NCBI GenBank assembly: GCA_035531115.1
Contig: DATKTP010000172.1
Location: 18,965-82,964, forward strand
DNA from: Candidatus Deferrimicrobium sp.
GTDB taxonomy: Archaea; Asgardarchaeota; Lokiarchaeia; Helarchaeales; HEL-GB-A
Direction of reading: 5' to 3'
Length of the DNA stretch: 64,000 nt
This document shows positions 40,852-64,000 of this stretch, piece after piece. Under the pieces are notes generated by a model that was given only the letters and a program-made list of their open reading frames with translations, had not been told where the DNA came from and made no database searches. The first letter of the stretch is position 1; each line of letters opens with the position of its first letter. The position numbers were made by a program, and so were the translations under genes.

Positions 40852-41901
40852 TTACTGATACGAAGGAATATTTCCGAAAAAGAAATCTATAAGATCAATT
40901 GCTGATTTAAATTGATTCAGTTCAAGTACATCTTGAATTAATAGGTTGTTAAATCGGTTTTCAAATTCAATTATGAATTTTTTCAAGCTATCCCGAAGAT
41001 GTTTGGAAGATTTGGAGGTTATGAGCCCTACCGTCGTATAGTTAGCTTTTATAAAGATTAAAATTCCTTGCGAAAGCTTCATTTCCTCCAATTCACCGAT
41101 ATGCAATACTTCGATACTCATCTGTTGCAACGCTGAAAGTAATCCCGCAAGCAAATCTCCATCAATTTCTGATTTCTCGAATTGATGATCATAAATTGAG
41201 ATGCCTATTTTACTATGAATAACAGTCAATCTATGAACCCTATACGGTAATATGTATAGAAGCTCTGGATTTTTCACAAGCACGTATACAAGAATTAAAT
41301 TCATAATCGCCGCATAAAAACCCGAAAGAAAAAATCCTAAACCATAAAAAATCCAGCTAAAAATATAGCTCAAACAGCCTAGAGAAACTGTTATGATGGT
41401 TAAAAATAATGAGAGCTTTTTCAGATTTTTCGGAGCCTTCAAAGTGGAGCGAACTAAAAATAAAAACAGAAAAATAAGGTAAAAATCCATTAAAAGATCA
41501 TAAAAAGCTGCAAATGGTATTGTGGGAAGTATATAACTCCGAAAAATAGTAGTATAAATTAATAAAGCTCCTATTGCACTAACAATGCTTATCTTAATGA
41601 CATTAATGGATTCTCGGGTAACATTATCAATAAAAACTAAAAATGATAAAATGGCAATTACTGTGAATATATAGACGGTGCTGTATAAAGGCCAGTTAAT
41701 GTAATACATAAAATAATTAATTAAATATACCGTCCCAAGTAAGAAATTCTGCATTGCAAATGCACCCCATGAAAGGGCTGCATAAAGAAACGGTTGTACA
41801 TTTTTTGTTTTCCACTTCCAAATAAGAAGGATTGTACAAATCACAAAGACAGAAAAAAGCGTATATGATGTTAGGACCACTTGGATATTATAATCCATCA
41901 A
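40852..41901 (-). CDS. seven-TM membrane protein with C-terminal cytoplasmic longin-like domain
   Basis: About 7 hydrophobic helices in residues 1-215; C-term IGISIYDHQF...DLLAGLLSALQQMS...GILIFIKANYTTVGLITSK. Confidence 0.5.
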   Translation of the reverse strand: MMDYNIQVVLTSYTLFSVFVICTILLIWKWKTKNVQPFLYAALSWGAFAMQNFLLGTVYLINYFMYYINWPLYSTVYIFTVIAILSFLVFIDNVTRESINVIKISIVSAIGALLIYTTIFRSYILPTIPFAAFYDLLMDFYLIFLFLFLVRSTLKAPKNLKKLSLFLTIITVSLGCLSYIFSWIFYGLGFFLSGFYAAIMNLILVYVLVKNPELLYILPYRVHRLTVIHSKIGISIYDHQFEKSEIDGDLLAGLLSALQQMSIEVLHIGELEEMKLSQGILIFIKANYTTVGLITSKSSKHLRDSLKKFIIEFENRFNNLLIQDVLELNQFKSAIDLIDFFFGNIPSYQ

Positions 41902-53427: not shown

Positions 53428-53721
53428 CTAGTCTGGTATTTCTCCCTCATAGTAATTGTCATAATCTTTATCATAATAATTTTCATAATATTTTTCTTTA
53501 CTTTTATCATGTTTATCTATTATTTTTTTCTCTTGATCAAGCCAAGGTTCAGCATATTTTTTCTTTATTTCCTTTTTTGGCTTCTCGTATTCAGCTTCGA
53601 TTTCACTTGCCTTAAAAGGGCCATATTTACTTTTCTTTTTCTCTTTAGGATGCTCATCCATTTTATCTGCATCCAAAGGGTCATATCTACTTTTCTTTTT
53701 CTTTTTAGGCTGCTCATCCAT
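53428..53721 (-). CDS. low-complexity K/Y/D-rich small protein with internal duplication
   Basis: MDEQPKKKKKSRYDPLDADK / MDEHPKEKKKSKYGPFKASE; about 60-bp direct DNA repeat at 53581-53720. Confidence 0.35.
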   Translation of the reverse strand: MDEQPKKKKKSRYDPLDADKMDEHPKEKKKSKYGPFKASEIEAEYEKPKKEIKKKYAEPWLDQEKKIIDKHDKSKEKYYENYYDKDYDNYYEGEIPD

Positions 53722-57454: not shown

Positions 57455-59056
57455 TTATTTGAGACTCCGTTTATAGGGCACATAATCTATGAGGCTAGGG
57501 ATCTCTTTGCTAATATTATAAATATTAGAGCCAATTTGTTGAAAAATATGAGGGATCACAGCATTTGGATCTAGCTTTGTGAAGATACGATATTTTTCCT
57601 CTTCCCGTTCTTCAATTAGAAATGTTATTCCCGGTAATTTTCCCAATGCTTCGACATGGTCTGGGTTAGGCGAATTCAATTGGACTACAATTACTTTTTC
57701 ATGTAAGGGAAGCTCCCCAATCAGTTGCGTAAGCGTTCCAAACCCTAATTGCTTCCCGTCTTCGCTCAATACAAGAATATTATGACATCGCCTCAATTCA
57801 TCAGATTTACTGTATACGAAAATAGTGCTTGATATAATATCATTGATCGCTGAAATTGCATCCCACATTCTCTTTTTTTCCGTTGTATTTAACCCATTTT
57901 CAGGTTCTACTAAAAGAATAATGCTGGGCTGCGTTATTGCAGAAAATGCAAAAATCAATCGTCTTTTTTCACCGTCAGAAAGATCTTCCATTTTAAGTTT
58001 TCGTCTATTTGAAAGTCCAATTATCGATAATAAACTATTAATACGCTCCTTCATATCCTTTTTTTGTAAATTAATTCCATATTTATATAAAATGTTCTCT
58101 AAAGTTTTATTTTTCAGATTGTCAATGGTTTTCGGCGGAAGGTCGAAATCTATCAGTTTAATTTTCTCTTGCACCTTGAGTATGTCTCTTTCCCCAAATA
58201 GATTAATTTCCCCCTCGATTTTCATTGCTTTTCCCAAGAATGCATTGAATATCGCTAAAGGAATTTCCTTATTTAAACAATATATTCCAATGATATCGCC
58301 TTTCATCGCAGAGAATGATACATTTTTCGTTACTATCTGATTCTTCTCATTAATGAGTGATAAATTCTTAATTACCAAGAGTTTCTCAATATCTTTTATC
58401 CCATGCTCTGAAGTAAAGCGCTCTTCGATTTCCTGAACAATCTGAACAATGTGTGGTGGATTATGAGTATTCCAATTTCTAAGAGTTTGTAAAGATTGGG
58501 GTGATCCAAGAATCTTTTCTAATTGTTGGTGATAAATTATCTCAGGTTTCTGAGGATAATTCTTGTAATTTATTTCAAATTCAAAATTTAATTGCGATTC
58601 TAATTGATAAAAGATTCGGATATGATATTTCTTTCCCTCTACTGTTTTTGCATTATAGATTGCCTTAACAAGATTGAATTCTTCATCTAATTCATCTAAC
58701 AGGCTTTCTTTCACTTTCAACGTAGATATTCGGGACATAATTGATTCCACGGCATGAACCGCCCGAATCTGCGGATCCACGGTTTTTTGAATGATTTGAG
58801 GAATAAATTCGTAGAGATTGGCTTGTTGCCTGATATCTCGCGGCAAATTCATAATAATAGGCCTATTAGGATAATCCTCGGGAAACAGAATTTCCATATA
58901 AAGTTTACGATTTGGTGTATGGACATAGCCTGCACAACCTTGTACCCCGTTTTTTGTAATCATCCACCATCCAAAGCGCGAAATCAACTCAAGAATTTCC
59001 TTCTGTATCGTACTATTCTTACTTGGTTGATCCATCTTATTTATCTCAATATTCAA
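57455..59056 (-). CDS. fusion of two RWD/UEV-like (UBC-fold) domains with a degenerate ABC-2-type ATPase domain
   Basis: Two units with ...LFPEDYPNRPII and ...INYKNYPQKPEII (FPxxYPxxP hallmark; no HPN/Cys); ABC part keeps LSDGEKRRL signature but Walker A is CLNKEIPLA and Walker B ILLVEPE (D->V). Confidence 0.5.
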   Translation of the reverse strand: MNIEINKMDQPSKNSTIQKEILELISRFGWWMITKNGVQGCAGYVHTPNRKLYMEILFPEDYPNRPIIMNLPRDIRQQANLYEFIPQIIQKTVDPQIRAVHAVESIMSRISTLKVKESLLDELDEEFNLVKAIYNAKTVEGKKYHIRIFYQLESQLNFEFEINYKNYPQKPEIIYHQQLEKILGSPQSLQTLRNWNTHNPPHIVQIVQEIEERFTSEHGIKDIEKLLVIKNLSLINEKNQIVTKNVSFSAMKGDIIGIYCLNKEIPLAIFNAFLGKAMKIEGEINLFGERDILKVQEKIKLIDFDLPPKTIDNLKNKTLENILYKYGINLQKKDMKERINSLLSIIGLSNRRKLKMEDLSDGEKRRLIFAFSAITQPSIILLVEPENGLNTTEKKRMWDAISAINDIISSTIFVYSKSDELRRCHNILVLSEDGKQLGFGTLTQLIGELPLHEKVIVVQLNSPNPDHVEALGKLPGITFLIEEREEEKYRIFTKLDPNAVIPHIFQQIGSNIYNISKEIPSLIDYVPYKRSLK

Positions 59057-59231: not shown

Positions 59232-60224
59232 TTGACGGCAGAGGAAAAAGTAATTGATGTCAATTCGTTGAATGTGTATTACGGTGAGAAACAAATCATC
59301 AAGAATGTCTCATTCCATTGTTATAAAGGTGAGATCATCGGGATGTTCGGGATTTCTGGTGCAGGAAAAACAACAATCATCCGCGTTCTAACCTGTCAAA
59401 TTCCAGATTATAAGGGGTTTGTGAAGTGTTTTGGATACGAACCTAAAAAAAACCCGAATAAAATTATTTCTCAAATTGGCTATGTGCCTCAATTAGAAAT
59501 GCTAAATCTGTATTATGAATTTACAGCTATGAAGAATGTAGAGATTTTTGCTTCTATGTACTTAATTCCAAAGCAGGAAGCAAATAAGAGAGTTCAACGT
59601 TACTTTGAAATGCTTGAACTTCCTAAGGATGTTTGGGATTCAAAAGCGAAATTCCTTTCAGGTGGTGAAAAAAAAAGAGTTTCTATTGCTATTGGATTAA
59701 TAAATCAACCCCACATCCTATTTCTAGATGAACCTACAACAGGGGTTGATGCATCCCGTCGATATGATATTCTTAATTACCTTAAAAAATTGAATATGGA
59801 AATGAAAACTACGATGGTTATCGTTACTCATGATTTGGAGACTGCAAATATTTGTGATCGCATCGTTTTGCTCCGAAATGGTCAGGTCGTAGATTTTGAT
59901 ACCCCTAAGAATTTGATCTCTAAATTACCATCCCAAGGAAAAATTGCTAGACTGCGAATTCCCGGGTTAACTACTGAAATCCTCGGGCGTATCGCTGAAA
60001 TAGGTGCGGTTATTTATATTCTGCGTGTCGGCAAGGACGAAATTGAATTATATATTGATAGGATTGAGGAGAATTTAGAGCATATTGTCAATAAATTATT
60101 TGAAATGGGCATTGCCATTTCATCCTTAACACGTGATACGGCAAGCTTTCGCAGATTCTTTCAAATTCGGATGCAAGATATCGCCTCAAAAGAGAAATAT
60201 AAAATTATTCAAGCGATGGATTAA
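59232..60224 (+). CDS. ABC transporter ATP-binding protein (ABC-2 type)
   Basis: GISGAGKTT, LSGGEKKRVSIA, LFLDEPTTGVD, VTHD; TTG start with GGAGG SD. Confidence 0.85.
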   Translation: MTAEEKVIDVNSLNVYYGEKQIIKNVSFHCYKGEIIGMFGISGAGKTTIIRVLTCQIPDYKGFVKCFGYEPKKNPNKIISQIGYVPQLEMLNLYYEFTAMKNVEIFASMYLIPKQEANKRVQRYFEMLELPKDVWDSKAKFLSGGEKKRVSIAIGLINQPHILFLDEPTTGVDASRRYDILNYLKKLNMEMKTTMVIVTHDLETANICDRIVLLRNGQVVDFDTPKNLISKLPSQGKIARLRIPGLTTEILGRIAEIGAVIYILRVGKDEIELYIDRIEENLEHIVNKLFEMGIAISSLTRDTASFRRFFQIRMQDIASKEKYKIIQAMD

Positions 60225-60226
60225 AG

Positions 60227-63200
60227 ATGAGTGAGAAAAAGAAGAATTATAAATTAATTATTGGGATATTAATAATTTTTATTCTTCCTTTTTCTCTTCT
60301 GGTTGGTTTAATCTTATATAAACCCCCTCACCATTTTCAAACGTCTTATATTAATTCTATTATAAGTGAAACTAATAATTATGCTCTAACTTTCCAAAAT
60401 CAAGATGGTCTGTTCGTAGAGCCGGCTATTGATGTGATATATAACACAGTAGCAACTTATTTCTATTTGAATGGCACAACCCCCTTTCTATTCTCAGACC
60501 TCAACCTTTCTTACATCTCGTATTTTGCTTTAACTCGCCAAAACCTAGATGGGAGCTTTTCTGATTTTGCAGGTTCTGGGGATATGGTTTCAACGTTCAA
60601 GGCACTTATGACCATTAATTGGACTATTCCTGAAGAATTAAGCACGAATCCTGTAAAAATGAATTTGACGTACACATTTTTAAATGAATCTCGCAATTCA
60701 GATGGAGGTTATAGCATTCGCCCTCCCTTTGAACAACCAGCTGAATTTAATTTTGATATTGGTTATGGAATTCCTCTGGAGAATTTTTCAAAGGAAATCT
60801 CTTATATGGAATATACTCATGAAGCAGTCAAAACTTTTTCTCTTCTGGGGATAACTCCTCCAAACGCTCAAACGACTACCTTTTTTATTAATACTACATG
60901 TCGGCGTATTTTCATTTTTGAGCCAAACTTTCCTGCAGGTTTTGCTGCAACAAAATATACCCTCTCCCCTGATCTTCATAGCACATATCATGGTGTCGCT
61001 GCCTTGAGCGATTTAGGGTATTCAAAGAGCGATATCGATCTTTTCGGCAACATCACTCGTTTCATTGAACTCTGCTGGAATTCCACGGATGGTGGTTTCT
61101 CGATGTATCCTGGCAATGTCTCAGATGTTACCTCCACCTATTACGGAGTCGTAGCACTCACGCTCTTGGATTATAATTTTTCAACTTCTCTTGTCATAAA
61201 CCGCACTAAAATCATTGAATTTGTTGAAAACTCCCAAAATTTAGATGGAGGTGTTGGCGCACGAAATGGTCTTCCCTCGAGTTTCCAAAGTGCGCACCAC
61301 GCTGCGGCCACTATAAAATTGTTGGAATATCTGCTCGTTCCAGCAGATGTTACACCTCTTTTTTATTGGTTAACTGATCATAAGGCGCAAAATGGCTTAT
61401 ATGGAGAAAAACTCGTTGAAGCTCAATACTGGGGAATTAGATCGGCTTTCCTTGCAAACAATGAAGGGTCTTTAAATAGAAGTTCGATTTCTGCTTTTCT
61501 AATAAATTGCCAGAATCCTAATGGAGGTTTCGGATCGGTTCCAAATTCGACTTCTACGGTTGTAGATACGTATACTGCCATAGAATCATTATATCTCCTT
61601 AATAATTTATCACATATAAATACTCTCGCTGCAACTCAGTGGTTACAGTCTTTACAGACTGAAGAAGGCGGCTTTGCTTCTATAATTGGATTGAATGCCT
61701 TCTTACAGTCCTATGCGCCGCTGTATGGTTTTATTGCTGATTTGTTATTAAATGATAGCCGTCCTTCCAGTGAGGCAACCTTTTTTGCACTTGCAGCTTT
61801 AAGTAGATTAGGTGCATCGCCATTAAATAGCACATCACTACGCTTCTGGCTTCTCTCTATTCAAAACGCAGATGGCGGATTCCCATTTGCCCTCGGTATC
61901 CGAAGCGATGCTGTTTCTTCTTTTTATGCAGTACAATCTTTAGCACTTATTCGAGACGAACCTTTTTCAACGCTCTCTTGCATTCAATTCTTGAAAGGGT
62001 GCCAAGTAAGCGATGGGGGATTTACTTTCTATCCGATGATCGGTGAATATCTTAATGTTAGCTACTTATTCATATCGTATGTGGCGGCCAGAGCGATCTA
62101 TTTGCTTGCTACCCAACCCGCCGATGTATTTGGCGCGATGGATTGGTTTTTAACCTGCAAGGATGATTACACCTCTGGTTATAGCGACACCCCCTATTTT
62201 GGATCAGACTTGCGTAACTCTCCTTATCTAATCGATATCGTTCGAGAATTGAATATTGATCAATCGTTCGATCCCACTTCTTGGATACAAACGATTCTCT
62301 GGCTCCTTATAATCGAACTTGCCGCCTTAAGTGCCTTTGGAGTGGTGAAACTCAGTCGAAAATACCGGAAAGATATTGTTGGAATGAAGCGTATACAACT
62401 GAATATTGAAGAGTATCCCGCCGTCCATGTGAAAGGACTTACCATTAAGGTAGGAAAGAAGGTCATTTTAGAAGATGTAAATATGACATTACAGCATGGT
62501 GAAGTCTTAGGAGTTGTTGGTGAAAGCGGTGCAGGAAAATCTACATTTGTCAAGAGTATTTTGGGCACAAAAGGTTCGAGTGGCGAAATATTCCTATATG
62601 GGTTTGATATCCGAAAAGAGAAAAAGCGATTAAAACCTATAATTGGTTATGTACCTCAAGATCTTAGTAAAATTTATGAAAATTTCACGGTCATGGAAAA
62701 CCTCCTGCATTTTGGCAAACAATACGGCTTGGAAGAAAAAGAAATTATTCAACGTGGTGGTAAAATACTCCAAGATCTAGGGATTTTTGATAAGCGTGAT
62801 AGTTTAGTTTCAGCGCTTTCAGGTGGACAACGACGAAGGGCGTCTATTGCAGTCGGTATGATACACCAACCAACCCTTTTTATCCTTGATGAGCCTACTT
62901 CAGGGCTGGATCCCATAATCCGCGAACAGTTATGGATTACATTGCTCAATCTTGCTGAAATCCATAATACCACTCTCATTGTGATCACCCATTATCCCGA
63001 AGAGAGTAAATTTTGTACCAAAGTAGCTATATTCGGACGTAAAAGAGGTCTTATCGATTTCGGCCCCCCTCTGGAATTAATAAACAATCTTCCCGGGTCC
63101 GGTCGCGCTCTCGATGTTAATCTAAAAGAATCTATTGCGCCAATTTCTGTTGACTTATTACCGATTCTTCAAAAAGTTCCACAAATTGAATTTTTTCTCG

Positions 63201-63364
63201 AAGAGAAGAAAGGATCCCGCTATCGTATCTTCTCGAATCTCCCTGCAAAAACGCTACGAGCGATTCTTATACAAGCCCTTGGCACACCTCTTATTGAGAT
63301 AACTCAAAGTGAAGCGACTCTTGTTGATTATTTTAGAATAAAATCGTTGGAGGTTAAGGACTAG
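60227..63364 (+). CDS. fusion protein: TM - extracytoplasmic alpha/alpha-toroid (prenyltransferase/terpene-cyclase-like) repeats - TM - ABC ATPase
   Basis: N-terminal TM; eight or more QNxDGGF-type repeats (RQNLDGSF, SRNSDGGY, NSTDGGF, SQNLDGGV, CQNPNGGF, TEEGGF, IQNADGGF, CQVSDGGF); second TM; GESGAGKST, LSGGQRRRASIA, ILDEPTSGLD. Confidence 0.7.
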   Translation: MSEKKKNYKLIIGILIIFILPFSLLVGLILYKPPHHFQTSYINSIISETNNYALTFQNQDGLFVEPAIDVIYNTVATYFYLNGTTPFLFSDLNLSYISYFALTRQNLDGSFSDFAGSGDMVSTFKALMTINWTIPEELSTNPVKMNLTYTFLNESRNSDGGYSIRPPFEQPAEFNFDIGYGIPLENFSKEISYMEYTHEAVKTFSLLGITPPNAQTTTFFINTTCRRIFIFEPNFPAGFAATKYTLSPDLHSTYHGVAALSDLGYSKSDIDLFGNITRFIELCWNSTDGGFSMYPGNVSDVTSTYYGVVALTLLDYNFSTSLVINRTKIIEFVENSQNLDGGVGARNGLPSSFQSAHHAAATIKLLEYLLVPADVTPLFYWLTDHKAQNGLYGEKLVEAQYWGIRSAFLANNEGSLNRSSISAFLINCQNPNGGFGSVPNSTSTVVDTYTAIESLYLLNNLSHINTLAATQWLQSLQTEEGGFASIIGLNAFLQSYAPLYGFIADLLLNDSRPSSEATFFALAALSRLGASPLNSTSLRFWLLSIQNADGGFPFALGIRSDAVSSFYAVQSLALIRDEPFSTLSCIQFLKGCQVSDGGFTFYPMIGEYLNVSYLFISYVAARAIYLLATQPADVFGAMDWFLTCKDDYTSGYSDTPYFGSDLRNSPYLIDIVRELNIDQSFDPTSWIQTILWLLIIELAALSAFGVVKLSRKYRKDIVGMKRIQLNIEEYPAVHVKGLTIKVGKKVILEDVNMTLQHGEVLGVVGESGAGKSTFVKSILGTKGSSGEIFLYGFDIRKEKKRLKPIIGYVPQDLSKIYENFTVMENLLHFGKQYGLEEKEIIQRGGKILQDLGIFDKRDSLVSALSGGQRRRASIAVGMIHQPTLFILDEPTSGLDPIIREQLWITLLNLAEIHNTTLIVITHYPEESKFCTKVAIFGRKRGLIDFGPPLELINNLPGSGRALDVNLKESIAPISVDLLPILQKVPQIEFFLEEKKGSRYRIFSNLPAKTLRAILIQALGTPLIEITQSEATLVDYFRIKSLEVKD

Positions 63365-64000
63365 TGGCACATATCTGGAACCTCATTATCAAAGAGTTTG
63401 GGCGCATTAAAAGTGATCGTAAGGGGTTGATTATGCTCTTCCTCTTTCCGCTCATTACAATAATTATTTTCGGATTTTCCTCAGGGGGTGGTTACGAGAT
63501 CGCTTATACTGTTGGTATTATCAATCAAGATCCTACCACTCACGGTACTAATATGGTGAATGCGTTCAATAGTGCAAATACTACTATGACTGTTGTAGCA
63601 AATTTCACCACCACAAATATCGCGGAATTCCAAGCAGCCTACGAGGAGGCATATGACCTCCTAAAACATGATAAGATCGAGATGATTTGTATCATCCCGG
63701 AAAATTTTAGCGAATCTGTTGAGAATGGCTCAAATCCCGTTATAATAATCTATATTGATGGATCTGGTTTAACTTCTCAAAATGATCTCTACTTAGCCCT
63801 CACTGAGCCTTTTCTATACTTCAAAATGATTGAGGGAAACTGGAGCGGTACTATCCTAGTTTTTCCGTATCTAGAATATGACGTTCCTTCGGGATGGAAT
63901 CAAATTTTAAACTATATGGCAGGCTTAATGATTCCTCTAATCGTACTGGCTACAAGTATGAATGTTAGCTCTCTGAGTATAGTAACAGAATTACCATTAC
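63364..64000 (+). CDS. ABC-2 family transporter permease (5' part, continues beyond window)
   Basis: GTG start overlapping upstream stop; IKEFGRIKSDRKGLIMLFLFPLITIIIFGF N-terminal pattern. Confidence 0.6.
   Translation, partial: MAHIWNLIIKEFGRIKSDRKGLIMLFLFPLITIIIFGFSSGGGYEIAYTVGIINQDPTTHGTNMVNAFNSANTTMTVVANFTTTNIAEFQAAYEEAYDLLKHDKIEMICIIPENFSESVENGSNPVIIIYIDGSGLTSQNDLYLALTEPFLYFKMIEGNWSGTILVFPYLEYDVPSGWNQILNYMAGLMIPLIVLATSMNVSSLSIVTELPL

Follow-up and report, generated by a model that had tools for sequence, protein, structure and literature searches.

Genes at the locus

The analysed stretch of DNA, 64,000 nt long and called the window here, carried a compact set of ABC transporter genes (Table 1). 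The gene under study was a single ORF encoding 1045 aa, with boundaries exactly as given in the initial annotation. The product, referred to as the fusion, was identical to NCBI HUY00046.1. Database naming of the family was inconsistent, with entries such as 'geranylgeranyltransferase type II' and 'phosphonate-transporting ATPase'. No RNA genes were found in the window with Rfam.

Table 1. Positions of the fusion gene, its domains and the neighbouring genes in the window.
Feature	Position	Strand	Evidence
Accessory pseudo-ATPase gene, 533 aa	57455..59056	-	Homologues beside fusion, motif check, PDB profile
Stand-alone ABC ATPase NBD1, 330 aa, TTG start	59232..60224	+	ABC_tran E=2.4e-26; NCBIfam DrrA E=8e-61
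Fusion ORF: TM1, double toroid ectodomain, TM2, linker, ABC ATPase	60227..63364	+	Pfam, hydropathy, AF2
TM1, residues 8-29, after K-rich cytoplasmic N-terminus MSEKKKNYK	60248..60313	+	Hydropathy, AF2 helix 8-29, family K/R counts
Toroid 1, units U1-U6, residues 39-365	60341..61321	+	AF2 boundaries; PF00432 matches this part alone
Toroid 2, units U7-U12, residues 372-675	61340..62251	+	AF2 boundaries, PF00432
Juxtamembrane motif D..T.G.GD.P.FG.DLRN, residues 646-664	62162..62218	+	Conservation in 23 fusion proteins
TM2, helix 684-713, then K/R-rich KLSRKYRKDIVGMKR	62276..62365	+	Hydropathy, AF2, K/R counts
Variable, low-confidence linker between TM2 and ATPase	62366..62422	+	pLDDT, alignment
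ABC ATPase domain (NBD2) 733-955 and C-terminal regulatory-type domain 956-1045	62423..63361	+	PDB, NCBIfam, Foldseek, motifs
ABC-2 permease 1 (start), 376 aa full-length, GTG start	63364..64000, continuing beyond the window end	+	Pfam ABC2_membrane_3

NBD1 was encoded directly upstream of the fusion at all loci examined. Every catalytic motif of NBD1 was intact, and its stop codon lay 2 nt ahead of the fusion ATG. On the other side, the start of permease 1 overlapped the fusion stop codon as TAGTG and a second permease followed on the source contig. Locus L001, which overlapped the window by 13,774 nt with one mismatch, showed Pfam matches of both permeases to ABC2_membrane_3 with E-values of 1e-34 and 2e-24. 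Permeases matching PF12698 and PF01061 were located directly downstream of the fusion. The two were different 6-TM ABC-2 proteins, and the extracellular loop between TM1 and TM2 measured about 140-150 aa in each. The features that define an ABC-2 (type V) system, a DrrA/NodI/RbbA-type NBD encoded together with 6-TM permeases, were present, and the arrangement was kept in eight contigs. These genes form a compact ABC-2 (type V) exporter operon in the order ATPase, fusion and two permeases, with the fusion supplying the second ATPase.

The four genes occurred together with the pseudo-ATPase gene in Helarchaeota (L001-L003) and, in another gene order, in Loki-type genomes (L004-L008). The accessory protein comprised an N-terminal domain of about 220 aa with two YPxxP units, an ABC-ATPase-like domain and a C-terminal domain. 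In the motif check, the ABC-like domain was found without Walker A, Walker B Asp and H-loop. The protein's profile matched the NBD of 4yer_A at 3e-17. Full-length homologues (27-33% identity, E-values of 1e-41 to 1e-86) were encoded directly downstream of the fusion in L004, L006 and L007. The N-terminal domain matched RWD at E=0.013 and nothing in a PDB profile search, which makes the RWD annotation a weak hint. In Loki-type genomes, a further adjacent (sixth) gene encoded a longin-like membrane protein. The PDB profile search gave no match for it, and this annotation is likewise a weak hint.

A database search for the same domain fusion, proposed earlier as a check, was successful. The fusion was represented by 13 clusters at 56-100% identity, at least 11 further 50%-identity representatives and about 55 additional clusters with PF00005 and PF00432. 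In total, about 70 or more protein clusters were obtained, and all named ones were Asgard (Helarchaeota, Loki-type Promethearchaeota and Hodarchaeota). Judged from these sequences, the fusion is real and ancient. In Helarchaeota, its members fell into two paralogous subfamilies. A homologue search with a diverse alignment returned the Helarchaeota set only. A locus search with a full-length alignment keyed on ABC motifs returned mostly unrelated bacterial ABC ATPases; L012 and L013 alone were relevant. L012 was a truncated Promethearchaeota fusion. L013 (Jordarchaeum) was rejected as a toroid fusion, being a 613-aa NBD protein with a different N-terminal extension. The nearest ectodomain-only relatives were Asgard proteins combining a toroid with 7TM_transglut and ATPgrasp_ST domains, quite a different machine. 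They were partnered by a protein with a transglutaminase core and by a further TM-anchored toroid protein. The occurrence of related toroids in this ATP-grasp machine suggests a generic extracellular module, whose ligand need not be a lipid.

Architecture of the fusion protein

Toroid repeats and an ABC ATPase had been described as sharing one polypeptide, with the repeats between an N-terminal and a second TM helix. This layout was recovered: PF00432 and ABC_tran matches fell within the single ORF, and hydropathy gave two hydrophobic segments, residues 6-30 and 685-707, the second of which included WIQTILWLLIIELAALSAFGVV. Clusters of K/R were present at the cytoplasmic ends of both TM helices in nearly all of 23 family members. 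N-x-S/T sequons were about threefold more frequent in the ectodomain (2.7 per 100 aa) than in the cytoplasmic part (0.95), and charged residues made up 14.8% and 26.6%, respectively. The K/R flanks, the sequon enrichment and the low charge support a position of the toroids outside the membrane, as the initial annotation had it, and a cytoplasmic placement was not indicated. The ABC domain must be located in the cytoplasm. The chain is predicted to start in the cytoplasm, to expose about 650 aa outside and to cross back to the NBD.

Motif cores of the type [DNE]G[GSL][FYV] were found at residues 60, 108, 159, 288, 340, 389, 432, 480, 549 and 596. Eight or more regularly spaced DGGF-type motifs had been noticed before; the ectodomain contained 10, compared with a mean of 0.34 and a maximum of 4 in 2000 shuffles. 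The spacing was 43-69 aa, except for a single gap of 129 aa that contained a degenerate unit. The secondary structure of the confident AF2 model showed 12 helix / beta-hairpin / helix units at residues 39-675, two of them with degenerate motifs (around residues 234 and 648). According to the model, these 12 prenyltransferase-beta-type hairpin repeats would suffice for two (alpha/alpha)6 toroids. The two halves, toroid 1 and toroid 2, were homologous (hhalign E=8e-32).

The assignment to the PFTB-type alpha/alpha-toroids, also made from the letters initially, is supported by Pfam and PDB. PF00432 matched the ectodomain with E=5.7e-42, and each third passed the gathering score separately. The family profile matched RabGGTase beta (2e-28) and FTase beta (1e-18) in the PDB. 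Prenyltransferase beta subunits were also the closest fold in Foldseek, a match that rests on the first model (residues 50-590 confident), since the top 50 matches of the better model covered the NBD only. Matches to SQHop_cyclase were weak. The ectodomain is an (alpha/alpha)6 toroid structure of PFTB repeats as in family PF00432.

In a wide family alignment, toroid 2 was the better conserved half and held most invariant ectodomain columns. Outside the canonical DGGF repeat motifs, the main conserved stretch was the juxtamembrane motif. Among 23 fusion proteins with 32-85% identity to the query, D654, F658, G659 and N664 were invariant and D646, G651, P656, D661 and R663 were kept in at least 90%. 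The connections between ectodomain and TM helices were shorter than 10 residues at both ends, which forces the toroids onto the membrane surface next to the permeases.

NBD2 is a complete ABC ATPase, as stated in the initial annotation. It showed Walker A GESGAGKS (765), LSGGQ (864), Walker B with the catalytic Glu, LFILDEP (884), and the H-loop (919), and matched ABC_tran (PF00005) with E=2e-28. The top PDB sequence matches were the NBDs of ABCA3, ABCA7, ABCA4 and ABCA1 (1e-53 to 1e-46). NCBIfam RbbA and DrrA matched at about 1e-45. Foldseek gave TM_1403 (TMt 0.82) and NosF (TMt 0.74), both spanning the NBD and the C-terminal domain. NBD2 is of the DrrA/NodI/RbbA/ABCA type. Direct tethering of the toroids to this motor had been claimed, which holds for the covalent link. 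Residues 714-726 of the linker had a pLDDT below 50 in an otherwise confident AF2 model, and the linker appears poorly conserved on reading the alignment. With this low confidence and variability, the connection of TM2 and NBD looks like a flexible leash and not like a rigid mechanical coupling.

Function of the ectodomain and the transporter

In the ectodomain of the 23 fusion proteins, invariance was largely confined to Gly, Phe, Asp and Gln positions of the repeats and to the juxtamembrane motif. It extended to no Cys or His, and the Zn2+ site of prenyltransferase beta subunits (Asp/Cys/His triad) is therefore absent. A conserved DxC was not found in the ectodomain. In one HMM segment covering it, RabGGTase His290 appeared aligned to Ser, with an ambiguous repeat register. 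DxDD, the motif of class II terpene cyclases (squalene-hopene and oxidosqualene cyclases), was absent from five members scanned, as were DDxxD and CGEQ. The lack of these motifs and of invariant Cys or His suggests that the toroids are probably binding modules and not enzymes. The term 'isoprenoid-binding-type', used for the ectodomain initially, is the name of a fold family and denotes a putative property here.

The preferred reading, with a probability of roughly 55%, is a heteromeric, Asgard-specific ABC-2 (type V) exporter or extractor, in which membrane-hugging toroids accept or hold hydrophobic, possibly isoprenoid-based cargo. The complex would consist of NBD1, the fusion with NBD2, the two permeases and the cytoplasmic pseudo-ATPase accessory protein. 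ATP hydrolysis by an NBD1-NBD2 heterodimer would power the permease heterodimer to pull a hydrophobic molecule out of the membrane or expel it. We infer the nature of this cargo, which may be an isoprenoid lipid or a glycoconjugate with an isoprenoid anchor. On the outer side, the toroids would take up the cargo or cap and hold it without catalysing a reaction, in a role analogous to that of the extracellular domains of ABCA proteins, LptC/LptFG, MlaD and NosD. The covalent tie of NBD2, TM2 and linker would mainly guarantee one ectodomain per complex, and force transmission through it is improbable. The subunit stoichiometry, which we infer from gene adjacency, may involve pairing of NBD1 with NBD2, of NBD1 with itself or of NBD2 with the pseudo-NBD.

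Among the alternatives, mechanotransmission fared best, although it appears unlikely. Here, nothing would cross the membrane, and ATP cycles of the NBDs would move permease loops and toroids onto an extracellular target, as in lipid-carrier stripping or shielding (BceAB), cofactor loading (NosDFY) or activation of surface enzymes (FtsEX). This is consistent with the high rank of NosF, from the ABC-2 system NosDFY, among the structures matched by the NBD and C-terminal domain, and with the sizeable extracellular loops of both permeases. A related toroid on the unrelated 7TM and ATP-grasp protein also fits a reusable extracellular module. However, the very-low-confidence linker is the sole covalent path from NBD to toroid and a poor force transmitter, so motion would have to pass via permease contacts. 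In addition, the DrrA/RbbA/ABCA type of NBD is typical of true exporters.

A receptor function is less probable still. Here, ligand sensing by the toroids outside the cell would gate the ATPase, and a possible pairing of NBD2 with the RWD-like pseudo-ATPase would signal to the cytoplasm instead of powering transport. The conserved pseudo-NBD gene, which always accompanies the fusion and whose product has an additional N-terminal domain, points in this direction. So does the architecture of toroid, 7TM and ATP-grasp, which resembles RloB/RloC (PMC11957051). Against this, NBD2 retains all catalytic motifs and is translationally coupled to NBD1 and the permeases, and a classical signalling output domain is absent.

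An elaborate exporter reading, in which an ABCA-like type V exporter would extract isoprenoid membrane lipids or dolichol-type carriers and pass them to the surface double toroid, was given the same low standing as the receptor. The RWD/UBC-like pseudo-ATPase and, in Loki-type genomes, the longin-like protein would regulate this Asgard-specific lipid machine from the cytoplasm. If true, it would represent a prokaryotic precursor-style link of ABC lipid export to eukaryote-type membrane-remodelling regulators.

Toroids acting as an extracellular prenyltransferase or terpene cyclase on substrate delivered by the transporter are very improbable. The nearest fold, that of prenyltransferase beta subunits, and the weak SQHop_cyclase matches speak for such an enzyme; the missing Zn site and the DxDD and DDxxD motifs not found in the members scanned speak against it. 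Moreover, a PPTA alpha-subunit gene was absent among the neighbours in all nine contigs examined, and prenyl diphosphate donors are cytoplasmic. An active prenyltransferase or cyclase was rejected for want of conserved catalytic residues. A glycoside hydrolase was also rejected, with conserved catalytic residues not found and lower fold scores. A thioester-type covalent trap on the cell surface (alpha-2-macroglobulin / complement TED-like), discounted already in the initial annotation, is effectively refuted by the absence of a C[GAS]EQ motif from the fusion protein and 166 related proteins collected. A fold similarity to TED far below that to prenyltransferase beta and the absence of macroglobulin domains also speak against it.

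Significance and comparison with known systems

To our knowledge, it is unusual for an ABC ATPase subunit to be joined to an extracellular domain, and a literature search for the combination of toroid and ABC ATPase found nothing relevant. The Asgard fusion adds a TM-ectodomain-TM module to an otherwise ordinary NBD, kept across the clusters described above, and all its named carriers are the archaea closest to eukaryotes. Toroids of the prenyltransferase type usually serve as scaffolds of cytosolic enzymes; here, such a toroid is placed on the cell surface and is apparently non-catalytic. Should the toroids of the preferred exporter receive isoprenoid lipids or lipid-linked glycans, ABC-driven extraction would be linked in a new way with an acceptor outside the cell, in organisms with a scarcely explored envelope biology. 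With mundane cargo, too, the four core genes, the accessory pseudo-ATPase and the Loki-type extra gene provide a defined multi-subunit structural target.

The closest relatives in fold, the beta subunits of FTase, GGTase-I and RabGGTase (PF00432), share the (alpha/alpha)6 toroid of GGF-type hairpin repeats with the fusion. These enzymes are cytosolic, single-toroid and Zn-dependent and need the PPTA alpha subunit, whereas the fusion has two tandem toroids, predicted to be extracellular, rich in sequons and flanked by TM helices on both sides, lacks the Zn ligands and has no alpha-subunit gene nearby.

In gene content, the operon is similar to the YbhFSR, RbbA(YhiH) and DrrAB exporters, where two DrrA/RbbA-type NBDs are likewise encoded together with two different ABC2_membrane_3 permeases. 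YbhF and RbbA contain two mutually fused NBDs and no extracytoplasmic domain, with a separate HlyD-type periplasmic adaptor. Unlike these, the Asgard NBDs are separate and one carries an N-terminal TM-ectodomain-TM extension. ABCA1, ABCA3, ABCA4 and ABCA7 are the closest solved NBD sequences; these exporters adopt the type V fold and bear large domains above the TMDs on the extracellular side. A single long chain carries those domains as insertions into its TM1-TM2 loops, and their fold is not the alpha/alpha toroid, whereas the large Asgard domain is a separate toroid module on the NBD; orthology is not claimed.

In LptB2FG-LptC, MlaFEDB and NosDFY, a bitopic or extracytoplasmic domain on the ABC core receives the extracted lipid or cofactor. 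The toroids may be functional analogues of the LptC, MlaD and NosD-type domains, but those have different folds (beta-jellyroll, MCE and beta-helix) and are separate proteins or permease parts, never fused to the ATPase. MacB (type VII) also combines an NBD and TM helices bracketing a large extracytoplasmic domain in one polypeptide. Its order is reversed (NBD, TM1, periplasmic domain, TM2-4) and its TM part is the entire permease, whereas the fusion has two TM helices with the ectodomain and the 6-TM permeases are separate. The Asgard proteins with toroid, 7TM_transglut and ATPgrasp_ST again couple an extracellular toroid to a cytoplasmic ATP-using domain. They differ from the fusion in having another membrane domain, an ATP-grasp ligase and no ABC-2 permease partners. 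The bacterial counterpart of this toroid/ATP-grasp pair is RloB/RloC, with an inactive periplasmic transglutaminase and a cytoplasmic ATP-grasp enzyme (PMC11957051).

Architecture and predicted topology of the fusion protein

The fusion gene encodes 1045 aa. A Prenyltransferase alpha-alpha toroid domain (PF00432, E=5.7e-42) was detected in three stretches, and an ABC transporter ATPase domain (PF00005, E=2.3e-28) at residues 748-892. A regular-expression scan located ten [DNE]G[GSL][FYV] cores at residues 60, 108, 159, 288, 340, 389, 432, 480, 549 and 596; when the ectodomain was shuffled with its composition preserved, the mean was 0.34 and the maximum 4. The repeats lie between hydrophobic segments at residues 6-30 and 685-707, and the latter segment includes the peptide quoted for the second transmembrane helix in the initial annotation. 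The C-terminal domain holds Walker A (GESGAGKS), signature (LSGGQ), Walker B with the catalytic glutamate (LFILDEP) and an H-loop. The initial annotation, which had described at least eight regularly spaced DGGF-type motifs between two transmembrane helices and a complete ABC ATPase behind them, was confirmed in every observed detail; its interpretation was supported except for the ligand class.

Each third of the ectodomain passed the PF00432 gathering threshold separately. The family profile matched solved structures of RabGGTase beta (2e-28), FTase beta (1e-18) and squalene-cyclase-type proteins (5e-14). Residues 50-590 were confident in a first AlphaFold2 model based on 13 orthologues, and the entire ectodomain in a second based on 23 family members (mean pLDDT 86.6, pTM 0.66). 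The second model comprised twelve helix/beta-hairpin/helix units in residues 39-675, ten with a recognisable motif and two degenerate, near residues 234 and 648. Twelve modelled units are the count required for two (alpha/alpha)6 toroids, and the ectodomain halves were mutually homologous (hhalign probability 99.9%, E=8e-32). Pfam, PDB profile matches and models all gave the toroid fold proposed initially.

ABC domains are necessarily cytoplasmic. Among the 23 family members, the short N-terminus carried 1-6 Lys/Arg in nearly all, the two exceptions being truncated or one residue long, and the 21 residues following TM2 carried 4-9. N-x-S/T sequons occurred at 2.7 per 100 residues in the ectodomain versus 0.95 in the cytoplasmic part, whereas charged residues made up 14.8% and 26.6%, respectively. 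In the query ectodomain, sequons were 2.4-fold above the prediction from its own composition, and several sequon positions were shared by over half of the family. The cytoplasmic ABC domain, the Lys/Arg flanks, the sequon enrichment and the low charge together show a predicted location of the repeats outside the cell, as the initial annotation had held. Since the modelled joins between ectodomain and membrane helices are shorter than 10 residues at either end, the predicted toroids must rest against the outer membrane face.

The ABC-2 operon and associated genes

The window was compared with its 110-kb source contig L001, with one mismatch over the 13.8-kb overlap. The fusion gene sits in an ABC-2 operon that is conserved and translationally coupled. 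Upstream lies NBD1, a stand-alone ATPase of 330 aa with intact motifs, its end separated by 2 nt from the fusion ATG. Downstream, an ABC-2 permease of 376 aa has a GTG start overlapping the fusion stop as TAGTG and is followed by a second ABC-2 permease. Both permeases are of the ABC2_membrane_3 family with extracellular TM1-TM2 loops of about 140-150 aa. NBD1 and the ATPase domain of the fusion (NBD2) are both of the DrrA/NodI/RbbA type. The nearest solved sequences to NBD2 were the NBDs of ABCA3, ABCA7, ABCA4 and ABCA1; NBD2 with its C-terminal domain superposed on TM_1403 (TMt 0.82) and NosF (0.74). The four-gene set recurred in two further Helarchaeota contigs and, permuted to permease, permease, ATPase, fusion, in four Loki-type contigs.

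A fifth conserved gene, encoding 533 aa, accompanies the fusion in Helarchaeota and Loki-type genomes. Its Loki-type homologues (27-33% identity, full length) directly follow the fusion gene. The N-terminal domain of about 220 aa contains two YPxxP units and a weak RWD match (E=0.013); in the ABC-ATPase-like domain, neither Walker A nor the Walker B aspartate nor the H-loop remains. The protein is a pseudo-NBD, and its N-terminal domain may be UBC/RWD-like.

Loki-type contigs carry a sixth gene, for proteins of 268-290 aa with a conserved N-terminal domain of about 100 aa and several TM helices. This domain gave weak, sub-threshold longin-type matches (Fuz_longin_1, E=9.5e-4; Clat_adaptor_s; Synaptobrevin), and a PDB profile search with the protein gave no match. 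The sixth gene was not found within the window; a 35-aa stretch of the window weakly matched by the N-terminus of the L009 protein (tblastn, E=0.002) may belong to a small gene for a related domain. The source contig also has a called gene without Pfam matches, a lysine-rich ORF of 97 aa with an internal duplication (…KKKKSRYDPLDADKMDEHPKEKKKSKYGPFKASE…). After the operon, L001 carries a second, distinct ABC system (MacB_PCD/FtsX permease, a 262-aa protein with a weak winged-helix match, ABC ATPase), followed by a very large beta-propeller protein. This arrangement is also kept in contig L002, where the latter has at least 1941 aa.

Coordinates of the fusion gene, associated genes and related loci
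Feature	Sequence	Position (strand)	Remark
Fusion gene	window	60227-63364 (+)	
Pseudo-ATPase gene	window	57455-59056 (-)	
Lysine-rich ORF	window	53428-53721 (-)	
Possible small domain gene	window	~41101-41205 (-)	
Second ABC system	L001	15711-19909	beyond window end
Sixth gene, Loki-type	L006	12702-13574	3' of pseudo-ATPase gene
Sixth gene, Loki-type	L007	12742-13548	3' of pseudo-ATPase gene
Sixth gene, Loki-type	L009	5773-6588	3' of pseudo-ATPase gene
Sister module, three genes	L010	7001-14695	
Sister module, three genes	L092	7001-15235	
Sister module, three genes	L093	7001-14596	
Sister module, three genes	L011		
Jordarchaeum NBD relative	L013	3245-7214	

Proposed function and alternatives

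NBD1 and NBD2 would form an ATPase heterodimer driving a permease heterodimer, for which YbhFSR-type systems serve as the model. The complex would extract or expel a hydrophobic substrate, which the membrane-apposed toroids would accept or hold. Solely from the kinship of the fold to prenyl-diphosphate binders, the cargo may be an isoprenoid lipid, a carrier of the polyprenyl or dolichyl-phosphate kind, or a glycan linked to a lipid. The linker between TM2 and NBD2 (residues 714-726) had the lowest confidence in the second model, N-terminal tip excepted, and was judged variable by reading the alignment, so the fusion is read as a stoichiometric leash and not a piston. Of four rival explanations, the most likely is mechanotransmission, with the complex acting on a target outside the cell. 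Next in likelihood is that the system is ligand-gated or serves in signalling, with the pseudo-ATPase taking part.

That the toroids are an enzyme ranks third. In fusion proteins sharing 32-85% identity with the query, the ectodomain has no invariant Cys or His, and therefore the Asp/Cys/His zinc site of prenyltransferases is excluded. Invariant positions were mostly structural Gly, Phe, Asp and Gln of the repeats; the remainder formed a juxtamembrane motif, D..T.G.GD.P.FG.DLRN (residues 646-664). CRR (225-227) and HH (357-358) were invariant within Helarchaeota but not across the wider family. Neither DxDD nor DDxxD occurred in the family members scanned, and no PPTA alpha-subunit gene was present in the nine genomic contexts read. 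A thioester trap is the least likely rival, as no CGEQ-type motif was found in the members scanned, in agreement with the initial annotation. From the lack of these signatures it was concluded that the toroids are probably binding or scaffolding modules and not an enzyme of known type.

Distribution and the sister module

The identical NCBI protein is HUY00046.1. The same domain fusion was found in 13 clusters at 56-100% identity, the named ones being Helarchaeota, in at least 11 further full-length representatives from an exhaustive profile search of 1.84 billion representatives, and in about 55 more clusters (both Pfam domains, 1000-1090 aa) listed by a search seeded with one further representative. 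Every named member was Asgard (Helarchaeota, Lokiarchaeota/Promethearchaeota or Hodarchaeota), and the fusion appears restricted to Asgard archaea as far as can be seen. Database names were automatic and mutually inconsistent, and a literature search found no description of a toroid-ABC ATPase architecture. The system is already in databases and uncharacterised there; it is an ABC-2 exporter of a new form, in which an NBD bears a novel ectodomain.

Helarchaeota-labelled fusions fell into two groups, P0171/P0172 and P0003-P0013, only about 33% identical in the ectodomain, and one group showed 58-59% identity to the Loki-type protein P0017. There appear to be two paralogous subfamilies in Helarchaeota, and these identities suggest two paralogous copies per lineage. 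HUY00046.1 is labelled as bacterial 'Candidatus Deferrimicrobium'. However, aIF-1A and Elp3 are encoded on L001, and every close homologue of the fusion is from Helarchaeota; L001 is probably mis-binned. In Candidatus Jordarchaeum, the closest NBD relative is a 613-aa protein with a different N-terminal extension of about 290 aa and no Prenyltrans match, its gene lying beside those of a single ABC-2 permease and a second ATPase. This suggests that Asgard classes differ in the N-terminal extensions of the NBD lineage.

The nearest non-fusion relatives of the ectodomain were proteins of 740-850 aa with an N-terminal TM, toroids and a C-terminal TM, without ATPase. Each of the four contexts examined had a second Prenyltrans-repeat protein after such a relative; in one context, this second protein was cut by the contig end. 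In the other three it had 1380-1490 aa, with a toroid ectodomain joined to a 7TM_transglut membrane domain and to an ATP-grasp domain termed 'sugar-transfer-associated' (ATPgrasp_ST), and was followed by a transglutaminase-core protein. This sister module is a second predicted architecture in Asgard with the toroid outside and an ATP enzyme inside. From its occurrence with both an ABC ATPase and the ATP-grasp module, the toroid cassette is seemingly a reusable extracellular module for two different cytoplasmic ATP-using engines in Asgard archaea. The described bacterial analogue of the sister module is RloB/RloC, in which a periplasmic inactive transglutaminase on seven TM helices is coupled to a cytoplasmic ATP-grasp enzyme (PMC11957051).
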